Below are positions 41 to 28,609 of a DNA stretch of 33,582 nucleotides, piece after piece (position 1 is the stretch's first letter; the number at the start of each line of letters is the position of its first letter). The notes under the pieces are model-generated. The model was given only the letters and a program-made list of their open reading frames with translations. It was not told the DNA's origin and made no database searches. The translations under genes were made by a program, and so were the position numbers. Origin of the DNA: Promethearchaeota archaeon (GTDB lineage Archaea > Asgardarchaeota > Lokiarchaeia > Sigyniarchaeales > SOKP01); contig JAFGGO010000188.1 in the NCBI GenBank assembly GCA_016930515.1, positions 1 through 33,582 of the forward strand. The letters run 5' to 3'.

Positions 41-2029
41 TTGAATTATCTTCAATTTGAGCTTCATTTTCTAAAATTTCAAATCGTTGAGACTTTATTC
101 AGTTTTATTTTCGCTTTAGAAAAGGGTGATGATATAGATTTATGGTTTAATCTCACATTTCCAAAAAATATTAGCAACAGGAGTTTTGCTGTTTACGATA
201 AAATTTCAGAATTTAAAAACCGTTGGAACTTAGAGGAATATCTTAAAAAAGAAATTGATTTAGAGCAAAAATCTATCCCTTATTGGAAGTATGTTTTTTT
301 TTACGATAAAGACATATCCGCATGTGGGGTAGATCCCATTGTTATTGAAAATAATATCATTATATTATTGCTCCAAATGGCACAGACATTTTCTGATAGG
401 GAGGATTATAATGCTTATAAGCATGGATTAAGATGCTATTCATCCTCTATGACAGTATCAATTAAACCAGATAATGAAAAGATTTTTACTCAAATGGGTT
501 TTGCAAAAAACGGAATGAATTTTCTGACTAAAAGTAAAAATAACGGAGATATTCTCATTAATTCAACATTTAAATCGTTTTCTCCCAAAGAAGATTTATA
601 CATAATTGAAGAAGCATCAAAACTTTTGAAAAATATCATTAATGTAAGAAAATCTCATTTTAGCGAAGAACAGAATGTCGATATATATTATTGTGAACGT
701 GAAAAAAAGTTTTTCTATTCAGACGATTATACATTATTAGGATTTTCAAAATCAGCAACCTCATCAATTACAATTCTAAAACAAGCAGATATATCATATC
801 AAAAGGGTAAATATGAGGAAGCCATAGTTCGTTTTCAAAAAGTATTACAAGTAGATAATTCCTGTGATATTGCCATTATGGGGTTAGGATATTGTTTTTA
901 TCGTCTTAATAAGTTTAATGAATCCATAAATTATTTCAAAAAATACACGAAAAATAATCGAGCCGAATATTGGAATAGAGCACAATTCACATTAGCTCTT
1001 TGTTATCTTGCTAAAAACGATTTAAAGTCAGCTGATGAAGAATTAACGGTTCTTATAAGTCAATGTTCTGAAGATGACAATATTCTTACTATTTCCAGAT
1101 ACCTCCTTGCAAACATAAAATTGAATCTAAACGAGCAATATTTTAATGAAACGGGAAAAAATAATTCAAGCTATATCAAATCAGCATCGAAATTATTAAA
1201 TAAAACAGAAGAAAATGGTTTTGATAAGCCCGAAATATGGTTTAAACTAGCGCTTGTTGAGACATATTTGAAGCAATACGAAAAAGCTAAGATGATATAC
1301 AAAAAAATAGAACACAATTTTCCAGATGATATTGCAGCTAAATTGAACCTTGCTCATTTAGAAATAGATTTGAACAGAGATCTATCACTTGCCGAGACAT
1401 ACTTAAACGAATGTTTAGAATTAGATGATAATCACTTTAATACATTGGTAGGTCTCTCGGTCATAAAAATGAAACAAAAAAAGCAAGACGAATGCTATGA
1501 AATTAGTCAGAAATTACTTTCTTTAGCCAAAAATCCCATAGAAAAAAAGATTGCTTTTAACAATATGGGATGGTATTACTTCGAACTTGGAAATAATGAA
1601 GAAGCATTAAAGTATTTCAAAAATGCTCTTAAAATAGATGATTCTTTTGATAATTCCATAAATGGATATATGGATTGTTTGTGGAATCAAGGAAAATTTA
1701 ATGAGATTATAGAATTTACAAAGAATTATGAATTTAAAGATAAAAATAAATTTTATTTAAAAAAAAGAGCTTATGCTTTTTCACAATTGAATGACCACGA
1801 AGAAGCTATAGGCATAATTGATAAATTGATTGAACTTTTTGATGATGATAAAAGATTTTTAAGCGATTTATACGATTCCAAAGCAGATATTTTAGAGAAA
1901 AAAGGGGAGATTGATGGTGCATTGAATTATTTTCAAAAATCATTAGATACGGGAACTGGAGATTATGAATTTACTCCTGAAACAAGGGAGAAGTTAGAAA
2001 ATTTAAAGGCAAAATATAAAAAAATATAG
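41..2029 (+). CDS. TPR-repeat protein with an uncharacterised N-terminal domain (true start may lie upstream of the window)
   Basis: Multiple TPR consensus repeats, e.g. ADISYQKGKYEEAIVRFQKVLQVD and AFNNMGWYYFELGNNEEALKYFKNALKID; very AT-rich. Confidence 0.85.
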   Translation: MNYLQFELHFLKFQIVETLFSFIFALEKGDDIDLWFNLTFPKNISNRSFAVYDKISEFKNRWNLEEYLKKEIDLEQKSIPYWKYVFFYDKDISACGVDPIVIENNIIILLLQMAQTFSDREDYNAYKHGLRCYSSSMTVSIKPDNEKIFTQMGFAKNGMNFLTKSKNNGDILINSTFKSFSPKEDLYIIEEASKLLKNIINVRKSHFSEEQNVDIYYCEREKKFFYSDDYTLLGFSKSATSSITILKQADISYQKGKYEEAIVRFQKVLQVDNSCDIAIMGLGYCFYRLNKFNESINYFKKYTKNNRAEYWNRAQFTLALCYLAKNDLKSADEELTVLISQCSEDDNILTISRYLLANIKLNLNEQYFNETGKNNSSYIKSASKLLNKTEENGFDKPEIWFKLALVETYLKQYEKAKMIYKKIEHNFPDDIAAKLNLAHLEIDLNRDLSLAETYLNECLELDDNHFNTLVGLSVIKMKQKKQDECYEISQKLLSLAKNPIEKKIAFNNMGWYYFELGNNEEALKYFKNALKIDDSFDNSINGYMDCLWNQGKFNEIIEFTKNYEFKDKNKFYLKKRAYAFSQLNDHEEAIGIIDKLIELFDDDKRFLSDLYDSKADILEKKGEIDGALNYFQKSLDTGTGDYEFTPETREKLENLKAKYKKI

Positions 2030-2271
2030 TCATAAAAATTTAAATTATTATACAGTTTACAACCTTTTTATTCTTCTTCAAACTTTTCCACGGTCAGCTG
2101 CACATAGTCCCCCTTGCTCAGGCCGAGCACCTTGAGTATTTTCTTGTCCAACACGACCCCCAGCGAGTTTCCAACGGTGGTGATTTTTCCAACTGTTTGT
2201 GCTTTTTTCGATGTCACGATCGTAAAAATACAACCAAGTTATTAAAATGTTCGCATTTGATTGCACCCTAA

Positions 2272-2350
2272 TTATAACTAAATTATAACTCTCTCGTTTT
2301 TTAAAAGCTAACCAATACTTGTTATCATATGGTTATAACATATTATAACC
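2272..2350. promoter_or_regulatory. Four TTATAAC motifs, including the near-perfect inverted repeat GGTTATAACATATTATAACC (2331-2350); putative operator/promoter
   Basis: Read directly from the sequence upstream of the 2383/2739 ORFs. Confidence 0.45.
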
Positions 2351-2382
2351 TCATAAAATAAATTAACAAACAAAAAAGCGAG

Positions 2383-2769
2383 TTGTTTAAAAAAGTGAAA
2401 TGTACAACATCTACAAGCTTGGCTTGTAAAAACGACGAGGAATGGGAAGCAGAGATATTGAAAGCGTGGACGAACTCCGAGGGTGTTGAATGTCGCTTAG
2501 TTTTTCAATCGAGATCGCAAGACATTGCAGATTCTCCCGTTCCAAAAGACGAAAAAAGCCAATCGAACAGGCCGATTTTTCGAGGACTTCGATGGGCGTA
2601 CACCACGCCGAAGGGGGGCGTTTTGTTCAAGCGAAACTCCCACGAGGCGTGGATACCAGAAAAAGCTATCGCAGGTAGCTACGATAAGGATAAAGGCATC
2701 CTTCAAGACATCTCGGTTTACTCGTGGTTTACCGTTAATTGGAAAGAATCGATCGCTCGAGGAAGATAA
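2383..2769 (+). CDS. Hypothetical protein
   Basis: 128-aa ORF overlapping the start of the next gene; no recognised motif. Confidence 0.4.
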   Translation: MFKKVKCTTSTSLACKNDEEWEAEILKAWTNSEGVECRLVFQSRSQDIADSPVPKDEKSQSNRPIFRGLRWAYTTPKGGVLFKRNSHEAWIPEKAIAGSYDKDKGILQDISVYSWFTVNWKESIARGR

Positions 2770-5132
2770 AATTGATAGAAAAAAAAGAAGCGAAAGAACG
2801 CAAGGCGATAAGGAGCAACCTGCTTCCGAGCAAACGATCAAAATACTCTTTAAATAAGGCGGGTCAGGAGCTCTACGAATTCGTGCTTTTTCAATACCTC
2901 AAGTCCGATGTAGAAGAGCTCAGACTCTCGGCAGCATACGAATCGCTCGCAATAGAGATATATCGAGATGCTCTCAAGGAACAGGTTGATTTTAGCTCTT
3001 TTTACAAAAAGCTAAGCGTTAAAGAACCAAAAGTCGTGTCAGCTGCGTTAGTTTACATCAGCATTCAGGTGAAAGGAATCTATATTTCGTTTCCAAAATT
3101 CTTAGAGCACTTTAATCAACCCGTTTCTCGCTCTTCAATCGGTCAAGGGCAGGCAAGCTTGTTTCGAATGTTGATTCGCCTCGAAAAATATAAAATTCTG
3201 TACGAATTCAGCTCGTTCGCACTTTTAAAAGACAATTACGATGAATCAGTTGAAGCACTCATAAATATCTACGGCGATCGCTTATGTGCAAAGGACATCT
3301 TGTCGCAAAAAGAAATCGCCTCTATCATATCTTTTTTTCGAACCAATAAACGCTTTTTCGAAAGAAAAAACACGAGCCATTATTTAAAAAATCCCAAAAA
3401 TGCAGCAGCAATTTCATGTTACGCTTATCTTTTATTTGAAAAAGACCTTGAAATACCCTTGGTGGACTTTTCGAACTCGATAGAATTCAGGCTTCGCTCA
3501 CGGTTAGACGAGACCCTTTCGGAATCGAAAACGACATATCAAAACGCACCAGATACCCTCAGGAGCGCCAAGCCCGAATTCGTCAGGTTATACTATAAGG
3601 AAGACCTTGAGAATTACAAGAGAAAAGTTTCCTACTGGATCGTGCACTTCGTTCAACTCCTCAAAGATTGGATCTTCTCGAAATCAATCCCGAGCAAGGA
3701 CCTTGAACTCGTTCGAGAATGCTTGAACGGCGAATTCGTTCGGGAATGCGAGCTCTTATTTGATTCGGTAGTAGATAGGGGATTCAAGCCGAGTTATTGG
3801 GGAAAAAACGACATATTCTACTATTATACTCCCAAAATGGCAGCCTTATCGGTCGTATATCGCTCCTGCAGGATTCAAAAGCATCTACAAACTTTAGTTA
3901 ATAAAGCAACATGTAAAGCTCTTGAAGAGGAGGGACTCATCTTGAAACACGAACGAATTAGCTCCGATTACATTTGGAGGAACGACAATTGGCTTCACGA
4001 CAAGCTACGAGACCTCGTGAAAACGAAAAACCAGCGATACACGAGACCGTATTTCACATCCCTTTGCAAGAGGCTGTTAAGGCGATTTTATCACGAGGAA
4101 ACCGATTTCCTGCTCCAATTATACTCCAAAACGGATTTGGAACCCCAAGAATTCGCGGAAAAGCTTAATATCTACGGTAGAACCATTACGTGGCTGGTAC
4201 GACTAATGGAAACGCACAATAAATTCACGGAAGCGCGCGTTTTTCACGCCATTCGACGGTTTATTGAAAGTCACATCCCCAAAGAATCCAAGAATGGCTT
4301 TCTCGCATGGTTAAAAAAGATGCAACAAACGAGGTGCACCTACCTTCGACACAACCACTTCTGTTATCAATTCAAGTACGACCTCTCAAAAGTAGACTCC
4401 CTTCCAGGCTTGAAATCGTACTTGAACGACATTTACGAGGGAAATTTTCCACGAGCGTTGTTCGGGGACCCAAACAGCTTGGGCATCTCTGACCTGAAAT
4501 TCACGGGTTCGAAGACGGAACCCATCACCGCAATATCCGTTAAAGCATATTTCAAGGATATCGTAAGAGAATCTCACTCGCACGAGCTTATCGGTCTTAC
4601 AAGAGCGGTATTCAAGCAATTCAAGGAGAGCAAGATGGGACGCAAGCCCGATCACCCCACCGTTCAGGCACACTTGCTTCGCTATCACGAAAACACGCTC
4701 GCCATTGAAGTCCCCGTTTGGTTGAACGCAGTCGACGGAAGGAAAGCGTTTCGGGGACACATCGCTCTTCTCCTAATTAAAAAAAACACGCTAATGGTGG
4801 TAGATTACAAGCGCGATAAGAGCGAAATGTTCAAGTGCATCCCACAAGTAACTGCCTACGCTCTAGTACTTCAATATCGCTTGGAACAATTAAGCAAGAC
4901 ATCTTTCGAATATAAGTGCGCATCGTTTTCAAAAGATCATTACATCGAATGGGATCTCGCAAGCGCGCTCGAAAAGATCGTGGAATACACCAAACTTCAA
5001 GACGCTTCGAGAAACACCCCACTGACCTATTCAAATAGTTCAGTGAATCTCAACCTAACAAGCGTGTTAGATTCGTTGAAACAGTCGCTCAAATACGATA
5101 AAGTAAACGATTCCAAAAAAATCGAAGTTTAA
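2739..5132 (+). CDS. Multidomain protein: TFIIB/cyclin-like helical repeats, possible HTH, C-terminal PD-(D/E)XK nuclease-like domain
   Basis: AIEIYRDAL...VVSAALVYIS, KNPKNAAAISCY and TPKMAALSVVYRSCR resemble TFB cyclin repeats; the C-terminal AIEVPVW...GHIALL...VVDYK...PQVTAYAL resembles a RecB-like nuclease. Confidence 0.55.
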   Translation: MERIDRSRKIKLIEKKEAKERKAIRSNLLPSKRSKYSLNKAGQELYEFVLFQYLKSDVEELRLSAAYESLAIEIYRDALKEQVDFSSFYKKLSVKEPKVVSAALVYISIQVKGIYISFPKFLEHFNQPVSRSSIGQGQASLFRMLIRLEKYKILYEFSSFALLKDNYDESVEALINIYGDRLCAKDILSQKEIASIISFFRTNKRFFERKNTSHYLKNPKNAAAISCYAYLLFEKDLEIPLVDFSNSIEFRLRSRLDETLSESKTTYQNAPDTLRSAKPEFVRLYYKEDLENYKRKVSYWIVHFVQLLKDWIFSKSIPSKDLELVRECLNGEFVRECELLFDSVVDRGFKPSYWGKNDIFYYYTPKMAALSVVYRSCRIQKHLQTLVNKATCKALEEEGLILKHERISSDYIWRNDNWLHDKLRDLVKTKNQRYTRPYFTSLCKRLLRRFYHEETDFLLQLYSKTDLEPQEFAEKLNIYGRTITWLVRLMETHNKFTEARVFHAIRRFIESHIPKESKNGFLAWLKKMQQTRCTYLRHNHFCYQFKYDLSKVDSLPGLKSYLNDIYEGNFPRALFGDPNSLGISDLKFTGSKTEPITAISVKAYFKDIVRESHSHELIGLTRAVFKQFKESKMGRKPDHPTVQAHLLRYHENTLAIEVPVWLNAVDGRKAFRGHIALLLIKKNTLMVVDYKRDKSEMFKCIPQVTAYALVLQYRLEQLSKTSFEYKCASFSKDHYIEWDLASALEKIVEYTKLQDASRNTPLTYSNSSVNLNLTSVLDSLKQSLKYDKVNDSKKIEV

Positions 5133-5161
5133 ATCTTTTTTATCAAATACCCATTTATAAT

Positions 5162-6898
5162 ATGGAACCATATTTTTATCTCGTTGCTTTCATTTACGCA
5201 CTCGTTTTAATCGCGATTGGTGCCCTGCGCTTGTTGGTGAAATATATTTACGCCAAGAATAACAAGACGGAATCTAATAGAATCATTATATTGTTTTGGA
5301 TCGTTTACGGTGCTTGCTTGGTGGTTCTCGGAATTTTCACTGGATTGGCAATGGTTTCTTATCTAAACGCAAAAAAAGACCTTTTAAACGCCTTGTACAT
5401 GTGTGCGCTCGGACTCTCGTGGGCCGTCTTGATACCCATCGTTCGAAACTCCCGCAGGTTCAAGACCAAGTACCAAATTACAATGGATATCCCGTCAAAA
5501 TGGAAATCGAAGGGCACGATCCGCTTGGGCAAGGTCTTTTATAAAAACAACACCAAGCACCCTTTTTTCTTGAACTTGGAGGACATGGCGCAGCACGTGT
5601 TCGTGTGCGGCATCACGGGCACGGGCAAGAGCAACTTCATGCAAAACTTGCTCTTACAGTTTTCAAGACAACACGGTGAAGTGCCGTTCCTGTTGGTGGA
5701 ATTCAAGGGAGAATATCAGCACCTTCAGAGCAGCATCGACGACCTGCTCATCCTCAAGCCAGGCGTGAACTTCTCGATCAACATTTTTAATCCCGAAAGA
5801 AGCGACCCGCACATTCACGCCGAGCGCATCTACCAGATCTTCGAAAGCGGGGGTCTTCTCGAAAATGTGGACTACACGCCACAGATGGAACGCGTTTTCG
5901 TGGACATCCTCAACAAGGTAGTCGAAAATAAGAAAAACAGGAGCTGGAAGAGGTTTCAGGACATCGCACAACAATATGCTAGCGACGAGCATAATAACGA
6001 CATCACGTTTAAGAAAAGCGTGGTTGCCATCGAAAACAGGATACGCAGGTATAGCGTTGGTACCCTCAAGCACATTTTCGACAAGAAATCGCTCGACGTG
6101 CGAGAATTGTTCAAGCACAAGGTCCTTCTCGACCTCAGTTCCATCATAAGGCTTGGTGGCGAAAAAGAAGACGCCTTGTTCTTCCTCAACATGATCCTCA
6201 AATACCTGTGGGATTGGAACTTGGAACAAGGGAGCAAGAACTACAGCGGCATAAGACATGTGACGGTGATAGAAGACGCTCAATACTTCGCACCGCAGGA
6301 GCTCAGCTCTCGAACGAAGCTCACGAGCTACCTCGAGGACATTGCCCTCCTGCTAAGGGGTACGGGCGAATGTCTCATCACGCTCGCAACGAGGCCGAAC
6401 CTGAGCAAGGAGATCCTCGCCAATTGCGGAGTGTTGGTGGCATTCCAGATCCACATGCAAAAGGACCTCATGCAAGAGCTCCTCAACTTGACAGACTGGC
6501 AGGTAAAATACTTGTCAGAGCTCAAGAAAGGACAATGCATCATGCGCATTAATTCAATTGAAAAACCGTTCGCCCTTCAATCGTCGCTCGTGAAGCGTAC
6601 TTGGCCTTCTGATGAAGAAATAGCAGAAAAAAACAAGTTAATTTTAAGGAAAATAGGGACGAATCTTTCGAAAGAAAAAAGGAGCAACGAGATCGAATCC
6701 ACAAACGAAATGAGCAACAATAAAGTGTTAGTATCTGATCAGTCGCTAAATTTAACAGGTAAAGTAAAACAAGATAAGTTTTATTGCAAATTATGCGGGA
6801 CCCCTTTAAGCGAAGAAACGATTTATTGTAAAGGTTGCGAAAATCGACTCGAATTGGAAGACCTCGTTAAAGAGTTGTACAATAAACAGAACAATTAA
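5162..6898 (+). CDS. Membrane-anchored HerA/VirB4/TraD-like (DUF87-type) P-loop ATPase with a C-terminal Zn ribbon
   Basis: Three N-terminal hydrophobic helices; HVFVCGITGTGKS Walker A; EFKGEY; VIEDAQ Walker B; CKLC...CKGC. Confidence 0.8.
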   Translation: MEPYFYLVAFIYALVLIAIGALRLLVKYIYAKNNKTESNRIIILFWIVYGACLVVLGIFTGLAMVSYLNAKKDLLNALYMCALGLSWAVLIPIVRNSRRFKTKYQITMDIPSKWKSKGTIRLGKVFYKNNTKHPFFLNLEDMAQHVFVCGITGTGKSNFMQNLLLQFSRQHGEVPFLLVEFKGEYQHLQSSIDDLLILKPGVNFSINIFNPERSDPHIHAERIYQIFESGGLLENVDYTPQMERVFVDILNKVVENKKNRSWKRFQDIAQQYASDEHNNDITFKKSVVAIENRIRRYSVGTLKHIFDKKSLDVRELFKHKVLLDLSSIIRLGGEKEDALFFLNMILKYLWDWNLEQGSKNYSGIRHVTVIEDAQYFAPQELSSRTKLTSYLEDIALLLRGTGECLITLATRPNLSKEILANCGVLVAFQIHMQKDLMQELLNLTDWQVKYLSELKKGQCIMRINSIEKPFALQSSLVKRTWPSDEEIAEKNKLILRKIGTNLSKEKRSNEIESTNEMSNNKVLVSDQSLNLTGKVKQDKFYCKLCGTPLSEETIYCKGCENRLELEDLVKELYNKQNN

Positions 6899-6964
6899 TT
6901 ATGAAAGGTCAAAATAAAAAAATATTAAAATTTAGAGTAAGATTCATTGCAAATGAATGACAAC

Positions 6965-7102
6965 CTACTCTTTTTCTTCCTTGTATTCGGGATTGTTCGG
7001 ATTTAATTGATTCGACCTATTATCGACCGAAGCTTGATAAGCAGGGTTGTTCGGGTTCATTGAGTCGGACCTATCGTCGTTTGAACTGCGATTTTTTCCC
7101 AT
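6965..7102 (-). CDS. 45-aa peptide with two NPNN repeats
   Basis: GGAGGT SD upstream of the ATG at 7102; internal repeat DDRSDSMNPNNPAY / DNRSNQLNPNNPEY. Confidence 0.7.
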   Translation of the reverse strand: MGKNRSSNDDRSDSMNPNNPAYQASVDNRSNQLNPNNPEYKEEKE

Positions 7103-7140
7103 AAACTTTACCTCCTTTTGATTGTAATTTTCATAAGCGA

Positions 7141-8052
7141 TTAAAAATTTCCAAAAAGTGTCCTCCACTCTTCTCTCGTTGCATGACCAGAAGCTTTCTT
7201 TAGGGTATTATAAAATTCGTTCAATACCCCTTTAGAATAATCGTCTAATATGGATCTATTGGGATATATTTTATCGGGTATTAAGATCTCATTTCCAATA
7301 ATAAAAGTTGCTTGGTTAAAAAAGGTCTTTAAACCATTTTTCCAATCATTAATTTTAGACTTGAGAAAAATTTGTTCCACGAGGCGCTCTATTACATAGG
7401 ATTTCAAGGGCTTTCCCCAATGAATGTTCCAATATTTAAGCAGTAAGATGAGCTTGGTTGCTTTTCCGTTCCTTAACTTGTTTATCGCGCTCAAAGCTCT
7501 CAAATCCAAGTTAGGATTCACAAATTTCAAGTCATTCATTCCATTAGGCACCCGTAACACATCGTTGTTGTACTTGATAGCTGGAATGCAATCAAAATCG
7601 CTCGACTGAGAGTCATTAAAATATATTCTAATGGGTATGGCGTGGGCGTATGGAAAGTCTTTCAAGATTTCCATGTCAACATTATATCGATTTTTAAGTA
7701 TATCCAAGTGAGTTCTTAGCATGACGAACAATTGACTTCCACGATTAACTCGGTTACTGACGAAATTTCCCGCATAACCTTTCTCAACATATACGAGATA
7801 CGCGTCTACATCGTAATGTTTTCGAATGAGCGTGTGCCTATCAAAGCTTCCTCCGTAATTAAAGTGAAGCAGTTCCATGTCCAATTGATCGTTGAATGCG
7901 GGAAAATACATCGAGCGAGGTTCACGCGATATAACCTTGAGGTGACGAGTGAGATACGCAGTTAGGTTCTTGATGTTCTCTACTTTCCCTTCAGTCACTG
8001 AGATCCTATTAATTAACCGTTCTAACCTGTGTTCGATACTTTTTGGAGACAA
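7141..8052 (-). CDS. SMODS / cGAS-DncV-like (Pol-beta superfamily) nucleotidyltransferase
   Basis: GGSFDRHT...YDVD (GS + DxD), third Asp in FDCIPA, LILLLKYWN, KSYVIE. Confidence 0.8.
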   Translation of the reverse strand: MSPKSIEHRLERLINRISVTEGKVENIKNLTAYLTRHLKVISREPRSMYFPAFNDQLDMELLHFNYGGSFDRHTLIRKHYDVDAYLVYVEKGYAGNFVSNRVNRGSQLFVMLRTHLDILKNRYNVDMEILKDFPYAHAIPIRIYFNDSQSSDFDCIPAIKYNNDVLRVPNGMNDLKFVNPNLDLRALSAINKLRNGKATKLILLLKYWNIHWGKPLKSYVIERLVEQIFLKSKINDWKNGLKTFFNQATFIIGNEILIPDKIYPNRSILDDYSKGVLNEFYNTLKKASGHATREEWRTLFGNF

Positions 8053-8138
8053 ATCACTTATTGAACGATCATTATTATTTAAATGTTATGATATTCCACG
8101 AGTAGAATAAAGAAATTATAGAGTAGGACTACTTCAAA

Positions 8139-8810
8139 TTAAAACAACTTCGTTTGATTCGATTCACGCACGATGGGACACTCAACATACCTCCATCCCT
8201 GCTCCCTGATGATGCTTTCGTACTTTTTCAAGCCACTATATTGAGGCGCAACTATGAAAAAAAAGTTGTACGATTTCGTTGATGGTACGGAATTTGAAAC
8301 ATACTTGGAATACACGTTGAGCTGCCTCATCAGGTCCCCTAAAGTGATGCTTTACGCTTTTACCTCAAAGATCAAGTTCACCAACGATTCTCCCTCCACT
8401 ACTTGAACCACTCCATTACCATCTGCTCTCCTCGGTTTGGGGTGGCTCACGCTGCACGAGACGTGCAAGTCTACGAACCCAATGTCTCTTCCCTCATCGT
8501 TTTCAACTGGCAATTCGAGCGTTTTTTTATGCGGTAGAAACTTCATTTGGTATCGTATTAATAACTCTTCAATGCGATCGTCGTATAAAGACTTGAAGTT
8601 AATTTTAACTAGTATTGGAAGTACCCATTCACGACATATCTCTTCAAGGCTTTCGTCCTTATACAACCACGTGATTATCTTGTCGTGAGACATTGACTTG
8701 AGATCAGGGTCCTTATAACCCATCTTTCCCATCCACGTGGCGTCCGCATTAAGCTTTTTTCTATAACGAGAATTGCTGCGATCGAACGACATTACAATAC
8801 TCTCCATCAT
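8139..8810 (-). pseudogene. PD-(D/E)XK nuclease-like gene interrupted by an in-frame TAA (8352-8354)
   Basis: ORFs 8352-8810 and 8139-8330 share a frame: IGFVDL...IFEVKA*SITLGDLMRQLNVY. Confidence 0.65.
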
Positions 8811-9004
8811 TTAATGTTATTTAAAGAAAAAAAAAACAGATTCTGTTAAAACTGAAAATGAAATTGTAAGCTGGTTGATGAGAATTCTGAGATCCTGAAC
8901 GTCTGCTATTTAGAATTGTATTACTATAATCGCTCAAAATATCAATCTCGAACTTTTTAAGGTAGATTCTAGACCATTTTGTAAAACCATTTAGAATTAT
9001 CTAA

Positions 9005-10216
9005 ATGATCGTTGATCCTAAACCCAAGAGCAAGGCGTTCGATTGGATTTCCACCCAGATGAAAAAAGGTGAGAAATTAGAGTTCGAACGGCTCGGGAAC
9101 TGGGTAATCGCGGGTTCGGGAAACTACGAAAAAACTCAGATCGACGGAAGGTACAGGGAAAGTTGCAACACTTATCGAGGGGCAATCACCTGCGAGCACC
9201 ACAAGACCGAAAGTCTGACGCCTCAATTCACGAGATGTCGCAAGTTTGACTGCGAAACCTGCTTTCCCGCCGCAGCCTCCGAAAAAGCGAGAGACATCGA
9301 ACAAAAATTGTTATCATTTAAGGAATCGGCAATGGATAAAGGAATCGACATTGGAAATTACGCAAGTATCGTCTTGACTTACAAGGCACCATTAACACAC
9401 CTAAAAACCTACGACGCCTTTAAAAAATTGAGACGGAAAGCAGGTTCGATCTTGAAAAGCAATGAACTTTTGGGTGGAGTAATCATTAATCACGCTTGGG
9501 TATTGAAGTGCGGTCATTGCAATCGGAAGCTAGCAGAGTGCCAATGCGAACAAACAAAACTGAAAGCCACAATTAATCACCACTTTCACGCCATCGGGTT
9601 TGGCTTCCTGACGCACTCGAAAGAGTTTCAGAAAAGAAATCCTGGTTGGGTGTACGTGAACCACGGCAGGCGAAAAAGCCTCCACGAAACCCTTTTTTAT
9701 TGCCTGAGCCACTGCGCGCTGTGGAGAAAACCAGACGGAAAATTATATCCCGCTTATGCATACTTCGGGTGGCTCAGCTCTCGCAAGTGCAGGATCGTGG
9801 ACATCAAAACCTCGTGGAGGGCTGTTAGATGCGGTCAATGCAAGAAAGAACTCAGGGAAATAACCGACGGGCTTTCTGTTTCGGGCGACTTACCTTTCTT
9901 CCCCGATAACACATCACTAAAAACGAAAGCCAAGAAGCTCGGAATCGCAATCGAAGGCAAGACGCCCAAAAAAATCAAGCTAGAAATACAAAAACGAGTG
10001 GTAAACAATCAAAATTTCAATTGCTCCCTCGACGAGAGCAGGGTGCGCTTTGGAAATCTCGTGAAATATCGCATCGTTTCGATAGCGTACGAGATAGCAG
10101 ACGTTCAGGATCTCAGAATTCTCATCAACCAGCTTCGCGCGTATAGAAAACGGGATCGAAAACGAGCGATAGAACTAGCAAAACTCGCTCTAAAAGCGAC
10201 TGGAGAATACGGATAG
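9005..10216 (+). CDS. HUH rolling-circle initiator/transposase-like endonuclease with Zn-finger motifs
   Basis: N-terminal C..CRKFDCETC, motif I SIVLTY, motif II HHFHAIGFG (HUH), motif III TLFYCLSH; extra CxxC pairs. Confidence 0.7.
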   Translation: MIVDPKPKSKAFDWISTQMKKGEKLEFERLGNWVIAGSGNYEKTQIDGRYRESCNTYRGAITCEHHKTESLTPQFTRCRKFDCETCFPAAASEKARDIEQKLLSFKESAMDKGIDIGNYASIVLTYKAPLTHLKTYDAFKKLRRKAGSILKSNELLGGVIINHAWVLKCGHCNRKLAECQCEQTKLKATINHHFHAIGFGFLTHSKEFQKRNPGWVYVNHGRRKSLHETLFYCLSHCALWRKPDGKLYPAYAYFGWLSSRKCRIVDIKTSWRAVRCGQCKKELREITDGLSVSGDLPFFPDNTSLKTKAKKLGIAIEGKTPKKIKLEIQKRVVNNQNFNCSLDESRVRFGNLVKYRIVSIAYEIADVQDLRILINQLRAYRKRDRKRAIELAKLALKATGEYG

Positions 10217-10227
10217 TCATGACTATC
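10212..10227. other. Perfect 16-bp palindrome GATAGTCATGACTATC over the HUH stop codon
   Basis: Direct reading; extends with one bulge to TACGGATAGTCATGACTATCGTA. Confidence 0.8.
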
Positions 10228-10257
10228 GTATATATTCATTGGAACGCACATTCAAAC

Positions 10258-10449
10258 TTACTTTTCATCTTCTCGTTTTCTAATATCTCTGATTCTCACT
10301 AATTCACGGAATTCCTGCTGTTTTTGCCTTATGATCTTTCTCCGCTCGACGATCCCTATCCTGTTTTTCCTCAGCAAGTCCTCCAATTTCTCGGTAAACT
10401 CTTCGAGCGTCAGGTTCTTGTCCATGACCGAGTCGTAGTCGATGCTCAC
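10258..10449 (-). CDS. Small helical protein (63 aa); its 5' ~47 codons form the core of the array repeat
   Basis: GTG start preceded by a GAGGTG SD; substitutions between copies are mostly synonymous. Confidence 0.6.
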   Translation of the reverse strand: MSIDYDSVMDKNLTLEEFTEKLEDLLRKNRIGIVERRKIIRQKQQEFRELVRIRDIRKREDEK

Positions 10450-10559
10450 TGTGTGGTAATCACCTCAACTAATCTGTTAAAACGACTTGTAACGTAATTT
10501 TACAAGGGTTATTTAAACGAAATATCGAGCCCGCCTTTATATGTGATTGCATTTCGAAA
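10309..10559. repeat. Array repeat R1 (full)
   Basis: GAATTCCTGCTG...GACCGAGTCGTAGTCGATGCTCAC...ATGTGATTGCATTTCGAAA. Confidence 0.95.
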
Positions 10560-15740: not shown

Positions 15741-15902
15741 CTCGAGCGTTAAATTCTTGGTTGTCCGTGACCGATTCGTGGTCGATGCTCACTGTTTCAA
15801 CACCACCTCAACCAATCTATAGTTAAGCCTTGTAATGCTATTTTGCAATGGCTTTTTAAACGAAATATCGGGTTGTCCTTTACATGTGATTGCATTTAGA
15901 AA
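15741..15902. repeat. Array repeat R4 (right part only; 4-bp insertion variant)
   Basis: CTCGAGCGTT...CTTGGTTGTCCGTGACC...ATGTGATTGCATTTAGAAA. Confidence 0.9.
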
Positions 15903-16703: not shown

Positions 16704-16813
16704 GAATTCCTGCTGTTTCTGCCTTATTATCTTGCGCCGCTCGACGATCCCTATCCTGTTTTTCCTCAACAAATCCTCCAATTTCTCGGTGAATTTCTCG
16801 AGCGTCAAGTTCT
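16704..16813. repeat. Array repeat R5 (left part only)
   Basis: GAATTCCTGCTG...GAGCGTCAAGTTCT, then homology stops. Confidence 0.9.
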
Positions 16814-16823
16814 TTTTATAATT

Positions 16824-17186
16824 TTACCTAATCCGTATGTTATTTTCTGAAATAATGATTAGTTTATTTAGATATTTATTTTGCTTTAAATCAATATTTT
16901 GCAAGGCTTTTTCTAAAAGCGCATTTGTTGCTTTTGGATGAGGTGATACAACTTGAAGCACTATGATTAATGGTGGTGTCCCCTGAAAAAAGCGATGGAG
17001 CACGCCGAATCCTCTATCGTGAGTTAAGATCGGCAATTTTTTTAAGATAGCGTGTTCAAAAATTTTCTCGTCTTCGATTCCAGCCTGTAAAATATCTTCG
17101 ATTTTTAAAACTTTAAATCCAGCTTTAATCAAGCAGGAAATTGTTGATTTAGCCAGACATTCGTCAACAATTATTTCCATCGACAT
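16824..17186 (-). CDS. DUF5615 family PIN-like toxin
   Basis: IIVDECL...DEKIFEHA...ILTHDRGFG. Confidence 0.85.
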   Translation of the reverse strand: MSMEIIVDECLAKSTISCLIKAGFKVLKIEDILQAGIEDEKIFEHAILKKLPILTHDRGFGVLHRFFQGTPPLIIVLQVVSPHPKATNALLEKALQNIDLKQNKYLNKLIIISENNIRIR

Positions 17187-17198
17187 CCCATTAAATGG

Positions 17199-17441
17199 TT
17201 AAGTGTTAATTATTTCTTCTTCGGGATGATCCATGATATAGGCGGAATAATCTAAAACTGCCCGTATATCTTCGTCCGTAATTCGAGGATATTCCTCAAT
17301 TATTTCTTGAAAAGAAGCACCGTCTCTTAGCATCGTTAAAATAATTGACAACGGTATCCGAGTTCCTTTAATAACTGGTTTACCAGATAAAATTTTAGGA
17401 TCGACAGTAATGCGATCGTTAAATACCTTCATTTTCCTCAA
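17199..17441 (-). CDS. DUF433 antitoxin
   Basis: RITVDPKILSGKPVIKGTRIP...EYPRITDEDIRAVLDY. Confidence 0.9.
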   Translation of the reverse strand: MRKMKVFNDRITVDPKILSGKPVIKGTRIPLSIILTMLRDGASFQEIIEEYPRITDEDIRAVLDYSAYIMDHPEEEIINT

Positions 17442-17524
17442 TAATTATAAAAAAAATCGATCAAATAAACCTTACTATATTCTTAGAGTTAAAATTGACA
17501 AAATTAATATTATAAAACTTACGA

Positions 17525-17714
17525 AGTAAATCCTCCAATTTCTCGGTAAACTCTTCGAGCGTCAGGTTCTTGGTTGTCCGTGACCGAGTCGTAGTCGATG
17601 CTCACTTGATATAACCACCTCAACCAATCTGTAGTAATGCCTTGTAATAGCATTTTACAAGGATTTTTTAAAAAGAAGATCGGGTCATCGTATATATGTG
17701 ATTGCATTTCGAAA
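17525..17714. repeat. Array repeat R6 (right part; 4-bp insertion variant)
   Basis: AGTAAATCCTCC...ATGTGATTGCATTTCGAAA. Confidence 0.9.
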
Positions 17715-24596: not shown

Positions 24597-24850
24597 AAAT
24601 TCCTGCTGTTTCTGCCTGATGATTTTCCTTCTTTCGACGATTCCGATGCGGTTTTTGCGGAGTAGATCTTACAATTTCTCGGTAAACTCCTCGAGCGTCA
24701 GGTTCTTGGTTGTCCGTGACCGAGTCGTGGTCGATGCTCACTTGATTACACCACCTCAACCAATCTTTAGTTAAGCCTTATAATGCTATTTTGCAATGGC
24801 TTTTTAAATACGATATCGAGTTAACCTATATATGTGATTGCATTTCCAAA
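24597..24850. repeat. Array repeat R10 (full; 4-bp insertion variant)
   Basis: Aligns with R1. Confidence 0.95.
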
Positions 24851-28355: not shown

Positions 28356-28609
28356 AAATTCTTGCTGTTTCTGGCGTATGATCTTTCTCCGCTCGACCAT
28401 CCCTATCCTGTTCTTTCGCAGCAAATCCTCCAATTTCTCGGTAAACTCCTTGAGCGTCAGGTTCTTGGTTGTCCGTGACCGAGTCGTAGTCGATGCTCAC
28501 TTGATATAACTACCTCAACCAATCTTTAGTAACGCCTTGTAGTACCATCCTACCAAGGCTATTTAAAAAGAATATCGGGTTAACCTATATATGTGATTGC
28601 ATTTCGAAA
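28356..28609. repeat. Array repeat R13 (full; 4-bp insertion variant)
   Basis: Aligns with R1. Confidence 0.95.

Follow-up and report, generated by a model that had tools for sequence, protein, structure and literature searches.

The attC sites of integrons are long single-stranded DNA (ssDNA) hairpins of the bottom strand, with R'' (RYYYAAC) and R' (GTTRRRY) core sites lying 50-150 nt apart. REPs are imperfect palindromes of 20-40 nt that are dispersed over the chromosome and occur with RAYT (HUH) transposases. Some integrative elements target the 3' ends of genes or tRNAs and carry a replacement end, and such elements can accrete in tandem. Concerted evolution by gene conversion is established in rRNA operons, tuf genes and repeated surface-gene families. 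Canonical attC hairpins are a feature of the archaeal integrons described to date (PMC9668308).

The window (the whole stretch of 33,582 nucleotides analysed here, on contig C66) belongs to the genome of a Promethearchaeota archaeon, denoted G000, and holds an array of repeats; a second array is present in the sister genome G026. The repeat is a piece of a small gene. A hairpin had been proposed for positions 10405-10447 of the plus strand, which lie antisense to the GTG start (10447-10449) and the opening 15 codons of a minus-strand ORF of 63 aa. The first copy, R1, and the elements around it are laid out as follows.

10258 to 10449, minus strand: R1, small-gene copy of 63 aa, the sole copy with the conserved C-terminus of the family
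10258 to 10309, minus strand: 3' end of R1 (codons 48-63), homologous to fragments 3' of the p403 paralogues on contigs C5 and C101
10310 to 10559, unstranded: repeat unit of ~250 nt, with codons 47 to 1, Shine-Dalgarno-like sequence (SD), palindrome H2, TATA box and right-end motif
10405 to 10447, plus strand: proposed hairpin H1, outer stem GAGCGTC/GATGCTC around an inner stem, antisense to codons 1-15
10423 to 10449, minus strand: core S3a, GTG start and codons 2-9, near-invariant within each genome, synonymous sites included
10459 to 10466, minus strand: SD GAGGTGAT, 9 nt upstream of the GTG start, kept in all array copies
10486 to 10506, unstranded: palindrome H2, CTTGTAA-N7-TTACAAG, between TATA box and SD
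10510 to 10517: TTTAAATA box (TATA), upstream of the ORF on the minus strand
10541 to 10559, plus strand: right-end motif ATGTGATTGCATTTCGAAA, near-invariant in G000 and G026

Seventeen full or partial copies of the repeat, all in the same orientation, are found in the window, and four more on contig C37. These 21 copies are confined to C66 and C37, with none elsewhere in the 4.0-Mb genome. All of them break at the identical nucleotide, past the Q-E-F codons (boundary 10309/10310). Arrays occur in only two of the five genomes of the genus (G000 and G026), and a search for further ones with the 19-nt right-end motif returned only G026 and chance matches among genome contigs, and chance matches only among metagenome contigs. 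A scan of the window against Rfam matched no family.

The cargo between the copies consists of toxin-antitoxin (TA) pairs (ParE, PIN/VapB, PIN/MazE, TumE-like and DUF433/DUF5615) and large repeat-rich genes; surface-protein cassettes are likewise separated by the repeat. On C37, two repeat fragments enclose a three-gene block of a CheB/CheR fusion, a PAS histidine kinase and a response regulator (L051, 2187-7150), and the cassette content is therefore wider than TA pairs and surface proteins. At 16705-17714 of the window, the DUF5615/DUF433 pair lies between R5 and R6, a TA operon within one repeat copy: codons 1-26 are found upstream of the operon and codons 12-47 downstream of it, with an overlap of 45 nt. 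An arrangement of the same type is present in G026 (L050 on contig C578, 2417-3330).

This layout is similar to that of integron arrays and the Vibrio VCR arrays in that short cassettes of one orientation, many of them TA pairs, are gathered with the repeats at one locus, and in that the separating repeat has one sharp boundary and a variable length. In contrast to integrons, the repeat here is a gene fragment with a promoter. A crude scan of the 33.6 kb for attC R''/R' sites gave one candidate pair per strand, neither with terminal pairing, and neither H1 nor the whole repeat forms an attC-type ssDNA hairpin. Scans of the larger ORFs of the window and of C37 gave no IntI or recombinase domain, the array running off both contigs.

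According to the preliminary description, H1 would be a folded ssDNA recognition site of the attC/REP kind or an antisense RNA hairpin. The pairing as such is present in R1: GAGCGTC (10405-10411) can pair with GATGCTC (10441-10447) with one G-T, enclosing a weaker CTTGTC/GACCGAG stem, and the G-T/G-U pairs would confer strand specificity on it. As ssDNA, however, the hairpin folds no better than dinucleotide shuffles on either strand and for any allele (z -0.06 to -1.2), and the whole 261-nt repeat is unstructured (z +0.5 on the plus strand, +1.1 on the minus strand). As plus-strand RNA, the canonical allele is at the level of its dinucleotide shuffles (z -0.6). Against codon-preserving shuffles, R1 reaches z -2.2 when the synonymous codons are drawn uniformly, and z -1.2 when they are drawn with the GC-rich usage of the array, in which case 12% of the shuffles fold as well.

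The codon usage of the array deserves attention here. Array copies use G/C-ending codons (ATC GAC TAC GAC TCG GTC ...) in a genome of 35% G+C; the single-copy orthologues found at a conserved chromosomal position in the same genus have A/T-ending codons and no SD. With the GC-rich codons, shuffled sequences fold almost as well as the real one. We do not think that the pairs of H1 are a selected structure; they are better taken as a chance product of this codon set.

Comparison of homologues offers little support for the fold as well. In an alignment of 24 sequences (12 copies from G000, 8 from G026 and 4 single-copy orthologues), the covariation score of the proposed stems is 0.074 versus a shuffled mean of 0.067, a value reached by 117 of 500 shuffles and equalled by controls in which the structure was slid by 1-3 columns. 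Departures from the stems among the aligned homologues are mostly broken pairs, and RNAalifold predicts zero pairs on this alignment. The outer stem is entirely absent in R3. All G026 copies carry TCG -> TCC, a synonymous change, or a further change at this site, breaking the central G-C pair of the inner stem, which is lost without compensation in 13 of the 22 distinct sequences. Both stems are lost in the single-copy orthologues with their AT-rich codons, so that the structure is kept neither in the sister array nor in the chromosomal gene.

With no covariation and with a folding energy no better than that of codon-preserving shuffles, the claim of a functional hairpin fails, barring a modest and post hoc RNA signal in one allele. 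There is no energy gain for the canonical allele or for ssDNA, and the hairpin at 10405-10447 is not a supported feature. Judging from its fold and its variants, palindrome H2 makes a stronger candidate than H1 for a structured element or an operator: as ssDNA its z falls to as low as -4.8 across 18 copies, and the variants CCTTGTAG/CTACCAAGG and CCTCA/TGAGG preserve the pairing.

The allele in question carries a 4-nt insertion, which the preliminary description had reported in four copies and held to improve the hairpin. The insertion is indeed the same in R4, R6, R10 and R13, all of which are frameshifted, and a fifth copy with it lies on contig C37 (L051, 1080-1130). Alignment places the four insertions of the window as follows.

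15757 to 15760, plus strand: 4-nt insertion in R4
17570 to 17573, plus strand: 4-nt insertion in R6
24706 to 24709, plus strand: 4-nt insertion in R10
28465 to 28468, plus strand: 4-nt insertion in R13

The improvement is modest as plus-strand RNA (z -1.7 and -2.5 against dinucleotide shuffles) and absent as ssDNA. The insertion-allele RNA has a defined centroid and a folding energy of -17.1 to -17.9 kcal/mol; against codon-preserving shuffles it scores z -1.6 to -2.9, with 0.8-6.7% of the shuffles as good. These values, and the presence of the allele in five copies, are what speaks for a strand-specific hairpin of the plus strand, acting as ssDNA or antisense RNA, as a functional element that the insertion would improve. 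However, the five insertion copies are one allele rather than five tests, and the hairpin was picked by eye. By direct reading, no TATA-like box is found on the plus strand within 100 nt upstream, and a T7 run past the upstream plus-strand gene would stop the transcript of that gene before the repeat (R2 flank). Together with the broken stems in R3, in G026 and in the orthologues, this makes a functional hairpin very unlikely in our judgement.

A protein made in an alternative frame from the insertion allele was ruled out, as the products of R10 and R13 are dissimilar. On the plus strand the insertion creates TTGGTTG, the exact complement of the leader sequence CAACCAA ~45 nt away (17570-17573 with 17616-17622 in R6, and equivalent places in R4, R10 and R13); the insertion may thus have arisen by templating, as a quasi-palindrome mutation, and not at random. 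Folding of the sense-strand leader and start, including the UUGGUUG/CAACCAA pairing, is no better than that of shuffles (z -0.6 to +0.7).

The near-invariance of the core, which had been offered as a sign of a nucleic-acid-level role, is real. The 24-mer GACCGAGTCGTAGTCGATGCTCAC occurs 11 times at <=2 mismatches versus 0 expected, and at <=5 mismatches it is absent outside C66 and C37. Synonymous sites are frozen as well: third-position diversity over codons 1-9 is 0.03 in G000 and 0.07 in G026, versus 0.25-0.55 in the rest of the ORF. Further downstream, in codons 17-47, diversity by codon position is 0.17, 0.05 and 0.33 and is unchanged by adding the frameshifted copies, a pattern indicating that the copies diverged under selection on the peptide. 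The wider claim, that the core is subject to an influence other than the peptide, is supported by the synonymous sites frozen within each genome and by the propagation of a frame-destroying allele to five copies; a conserved folded element is the part that falls away.

A comparison of the two arrays offers a greater level of detail. The mean distance over codons 1-9 is 0.05 within G000, 0.10 within G026 and 0.19 between the two, a between/within ratio of 2.4. The same ratio is 1.1-1.3 in each of the other segments (promoter region, leader, codons 10-16, codons 17-47). These flanks are mosaic, and their divergence within one genome is about as large as that between genomes. Two synonymous differences, GAC/GAT and TCG/TCC, are fixed in the five aligned G026 copies, and the separately aligned copies G026g and G026h show further changes at the TCG/TCC site; as only two independent arrays (G000 and G026) were available, these fixed differences represent a single comparison. 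Homogeneity within each array combined with genome-specific differences indicates that the core is not slowly evolving and is homogenised per array. Between the two genomes the core differs no less than its flanks, which points to within-array homogenisation rather than to a conserved folded element.

Individual copies display the same behavior. R1 and R14 share an identical stretch of 54 nt at the start, yet in codons 17-47 they are not among each other's three nearest copies (<0.78 identity). In most pairwise comparisons of G000 copies, the longest run of identity falls within -7 to +57 of the start, and for most copies the nearest neighbours in the upstream segment and leader conflict with those in codons 17-47. 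Judging from these affinities, the flanks on either side of the core appear to be uncoupled by recombination. The insertion copies are 96% identical over codons 1-16, yet their upstream and downstream affinities differ, which indicates that the frameshift allele has passed between copies. Low within-genome distance is thus limited to the tract and accompanied by mosaic flanks, as in concerted evolution.

We consider it somewhat more probable than the contrary that the homogeneity of the core stems from a short tract of conversion or crossover where the repeated gene begins, and we infer gene conversion or recombination as the homogenising process. Copies within one genome would repeatedly exchange a short tract at codons 1-9, leading to its near-invariance, either by gene conversion or by crossovers that resolve in the longest stretch of shared identity. 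The core tract would then evolve in concert, while the flanks would retain their old mosaic diversity. The 4-nt insertion would be a frameshift allele of the tract, spread by the same exchanges to five copies whose peptide is dispensable. Gene-conversion systems likewise have copies that are closer within than between genomes over a tract, mosaic flanks and the spread of a non-functional allele. Unlike in the classic systems, the tract here is only ~27-50 nt long, the rest of the repeat is not homogenised, and the tract occupies the start of a truncated gene within a cassette array. Had the repeats been amplified after G000 and G026 split, the core tract would look similar, and a sequence-specific protein or RNA partner, co-evolving with the tract in each genome, could explain homogeneity over ~27-50 nt equally well.

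The location of the core at the start codon hints at another source of constraint, namely selection on translation initiation. The first codons would be fixed as part of a ribosome landing site, together with the SD, that has to be unstructured or well decoded. In agreement with this, the SD bin (diversity 0.08/0.04) and codons 1-9 are the least variable segments around the start, and are separated by 10 nt of higher diversity (0.35). The sense RNA from -45 to +50 tends, if at all, to fold less than its shuffles (z 0 to +0.7), and the lack of an SD and the different codons in the single-copy orthologues suggest that the array version has an initiation design of its own. However, selection for an open start seldom fixes all synonymous sites, the frameshifted copies retain the same core although their product is meaningless, and the copies after R1 are truncated genes that may not need to be expressed. 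An initiation constraint is therefore a rather improbable cause of the frozen sites, and exchange of a short tract remains our preferred reading.

A further explanation involves the small gene and its neighbour. The small gene belongs to a family of 59-63-aa proteins in Promethearchaeota (Asgard archaea) with a conserved basic C-terminus, for which no meaningful match was obtained in Pfam, PHROGs or PDB sequences. It is single-copy in three of the five genomes of the genus, and elsewhere in Promethearchaeota the single-copy gene sits between an AP-endonuclease gene and HEAT/GHMP-kinase genes. In G000 these neighbours are found on other contigs, without the small gene. Members of the family also resemble the C-terminal 55 residues of a ~430-aa protein present in several genomes; one such protein, of 430 aa and not assigned to any family, is encoded in G000 itself (L052 on contig C47, 256-1548), its last 55 residues being homologous to the small protein, and at least seven genomes of the order encode proteins of this type, 425-438 aa long. 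In two contigs of a distant lineage whose small gene is single-copy, genes of 147 and 118 aa are inserted just upstream of it, and a third contig lacks them (L005, 3960-4780, compared with L003, 9852-10000), so that the promoter side of the gene is variable there too, without a repeat.

Next to R1 lies the gene for a protein that we refer to as p403, followed by a short motif.

9005 to 10216, plus strand: p403, Cys-rich, 403 aa, adjoining R1, with an invariant H-F-H, Tyr232 and Cys clusters in the alignment
10219 to 10233, plus strand: motif A1, ATGACTATCGTATAT, directly past the p403 stop codon and kept after all three p403 paralogues

Searches of p403 against Pfam, NCBIfam, PHROGs and PDB sequences and with Foldseek against the PDB returned nothing. 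Its AF2 model (pLDDT 75) has HUH Rep nuclease domains as best VIA-align matches, which are weak (Z 4-5.6) and mixed with generic RRM-like folds; the model thus weakly suggests a fold like that of HUH Rep proteins. Identification as an Fe-ADH, to which the protein length and the synteny in other genomes had pointed, was rejected. Homologues of p403 are found, among the five genomes of the genus, only in the two with arrays; in other Loki genomes they occur in small islands or beside FtsK/HerA-like ATPases. The region at 2000-10250 of the window has 40-46% G+C, as opposed to 35% for the genome, and carries genes for a HerA/FtsK-like ATPase, a CD-NTase-like protein, an AbrB-like protein and p403. 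The region has the look of an integrated or plasmid-like element that borders on the array.

All three p403 genes are followed by the motif ATAACTATCGTATAT and then by a 3' fragment of the small gene ending in ...DVRKRE and a stop codon. Behind the C5 and C101 paralogues this fragment is ~75 nt long and encodes the C-terminal end, and only there is a second motif, GATAACTCTCGTATAC, found beyond it (compared loci: window 10196-10312; L063 on C5, 760-935; L064 on C101, 10665-10830 and 11603-11770). The homology between the 3' end of R1 and the p403-linked fragments spans the region from the p403 stop codon to ~10305-10312, consistent with the Q-E-F boundary at 10309/10310. R1 would thus seem to be chimeric, with a 5' part of the repeat type and a 3' end linked to p403, and the Q-E-F boundary is apparently a site at which recombination joined each of the copies. 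On the far side of the p403 region (~2200-2300), where the small gene might have had its original 3' end, only an A2-like motif is present, at 2289; no convincing fragment was found, and this location was rejected.

These features recall two of the described systems. The locus resembles REP/RAYT pairs in having a short repeated sequence beside a gene with HUH-like motifs. Unlike a REP, the repeat here is 250 nt long, coding, devoid of a significant hairpin and confined to two contigs; neither a stable ssDNA stem-loop nor dispersal over the chromosome is seen. Similarly to end-targeting elements, R1 is chimeric, with its last 16 codons homologous to p403-linked fragments, and all copies break at the same nucleotide. 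In contrast to such elements, the units here are cassettes of 0.7-4 kb without an integrase of their own, it is the promoter-bearing 5' part that is repeated, and the candidate enzyme resembles HUH proteins and not tyrosine recombinases.

In this setting, the core, from the start to ~codon 16, might itself be a sequence-specific recombination or nicking site of the cassette system, with no hairpin needed. The promoter/leader module would be joined there to the module of codons 17-47, some cassettes would be inserted there, and the candidate agent might be the HUH-like p403 or another recombinase. By eye, about 7 of ~10 partial-copy breakpoints (in R4, R5, R12, R16 and three C37 copies) fall inside 10403-10449, which makes up 19% of the unit, so that the core may itself be recombination-prone. 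The uncoupled upstream and downstream affinities across the tract are in line with such a site, as is the restriction of p403 homologues to the two array-bearing genomes. The small-gene 3' fragment behind each p403 paralogue points in the same direction, linking the element and the gene by recombination at the Q-E-F boundary. However, the breakpoints are spread over 45 nt rather than falling on one nucleotide, and several lie in homologous cassettes and are not independent. All or most of the core is missing from five cassette-flanking copies (R5, R9, R11, R12 and R16), so the array does not depend on it. The core resembles motifs A1 and A2 only in TCGTA, which G026 does not keep, and the assignment of p403 to HUH proteins rests on the weak structural matches given above. 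We therefore regard a dedicated site in the core as unlikely, and retain exchange of a short tract between copies as the preferred explanation.

A bolder proposal is that crossover or nicking would take place at the homogenised start-codon core, as part of an archaeal cassette system not described before, in which a HUH-type p403 enzyme, instead of an integrase acting on attC hairpins, would shuffle cassettes between the copies of a split gene. We give this proposal little credence at present.

A real hairpin would have meant that an Asgard archaeon has a recombination site recognised by its structure, in the manner of attC or REP, and would have offered a handle on gene capture by the array. 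The lack of support for it removes a tempting but wrong mechanistic anchor. Any model of the array must instead rest on the short tract homogenised in each genome, the sharp Q-E-F boundary shared by all copies and the link to a p403-type element. The array itself remains of interest, and its layout is unusual.
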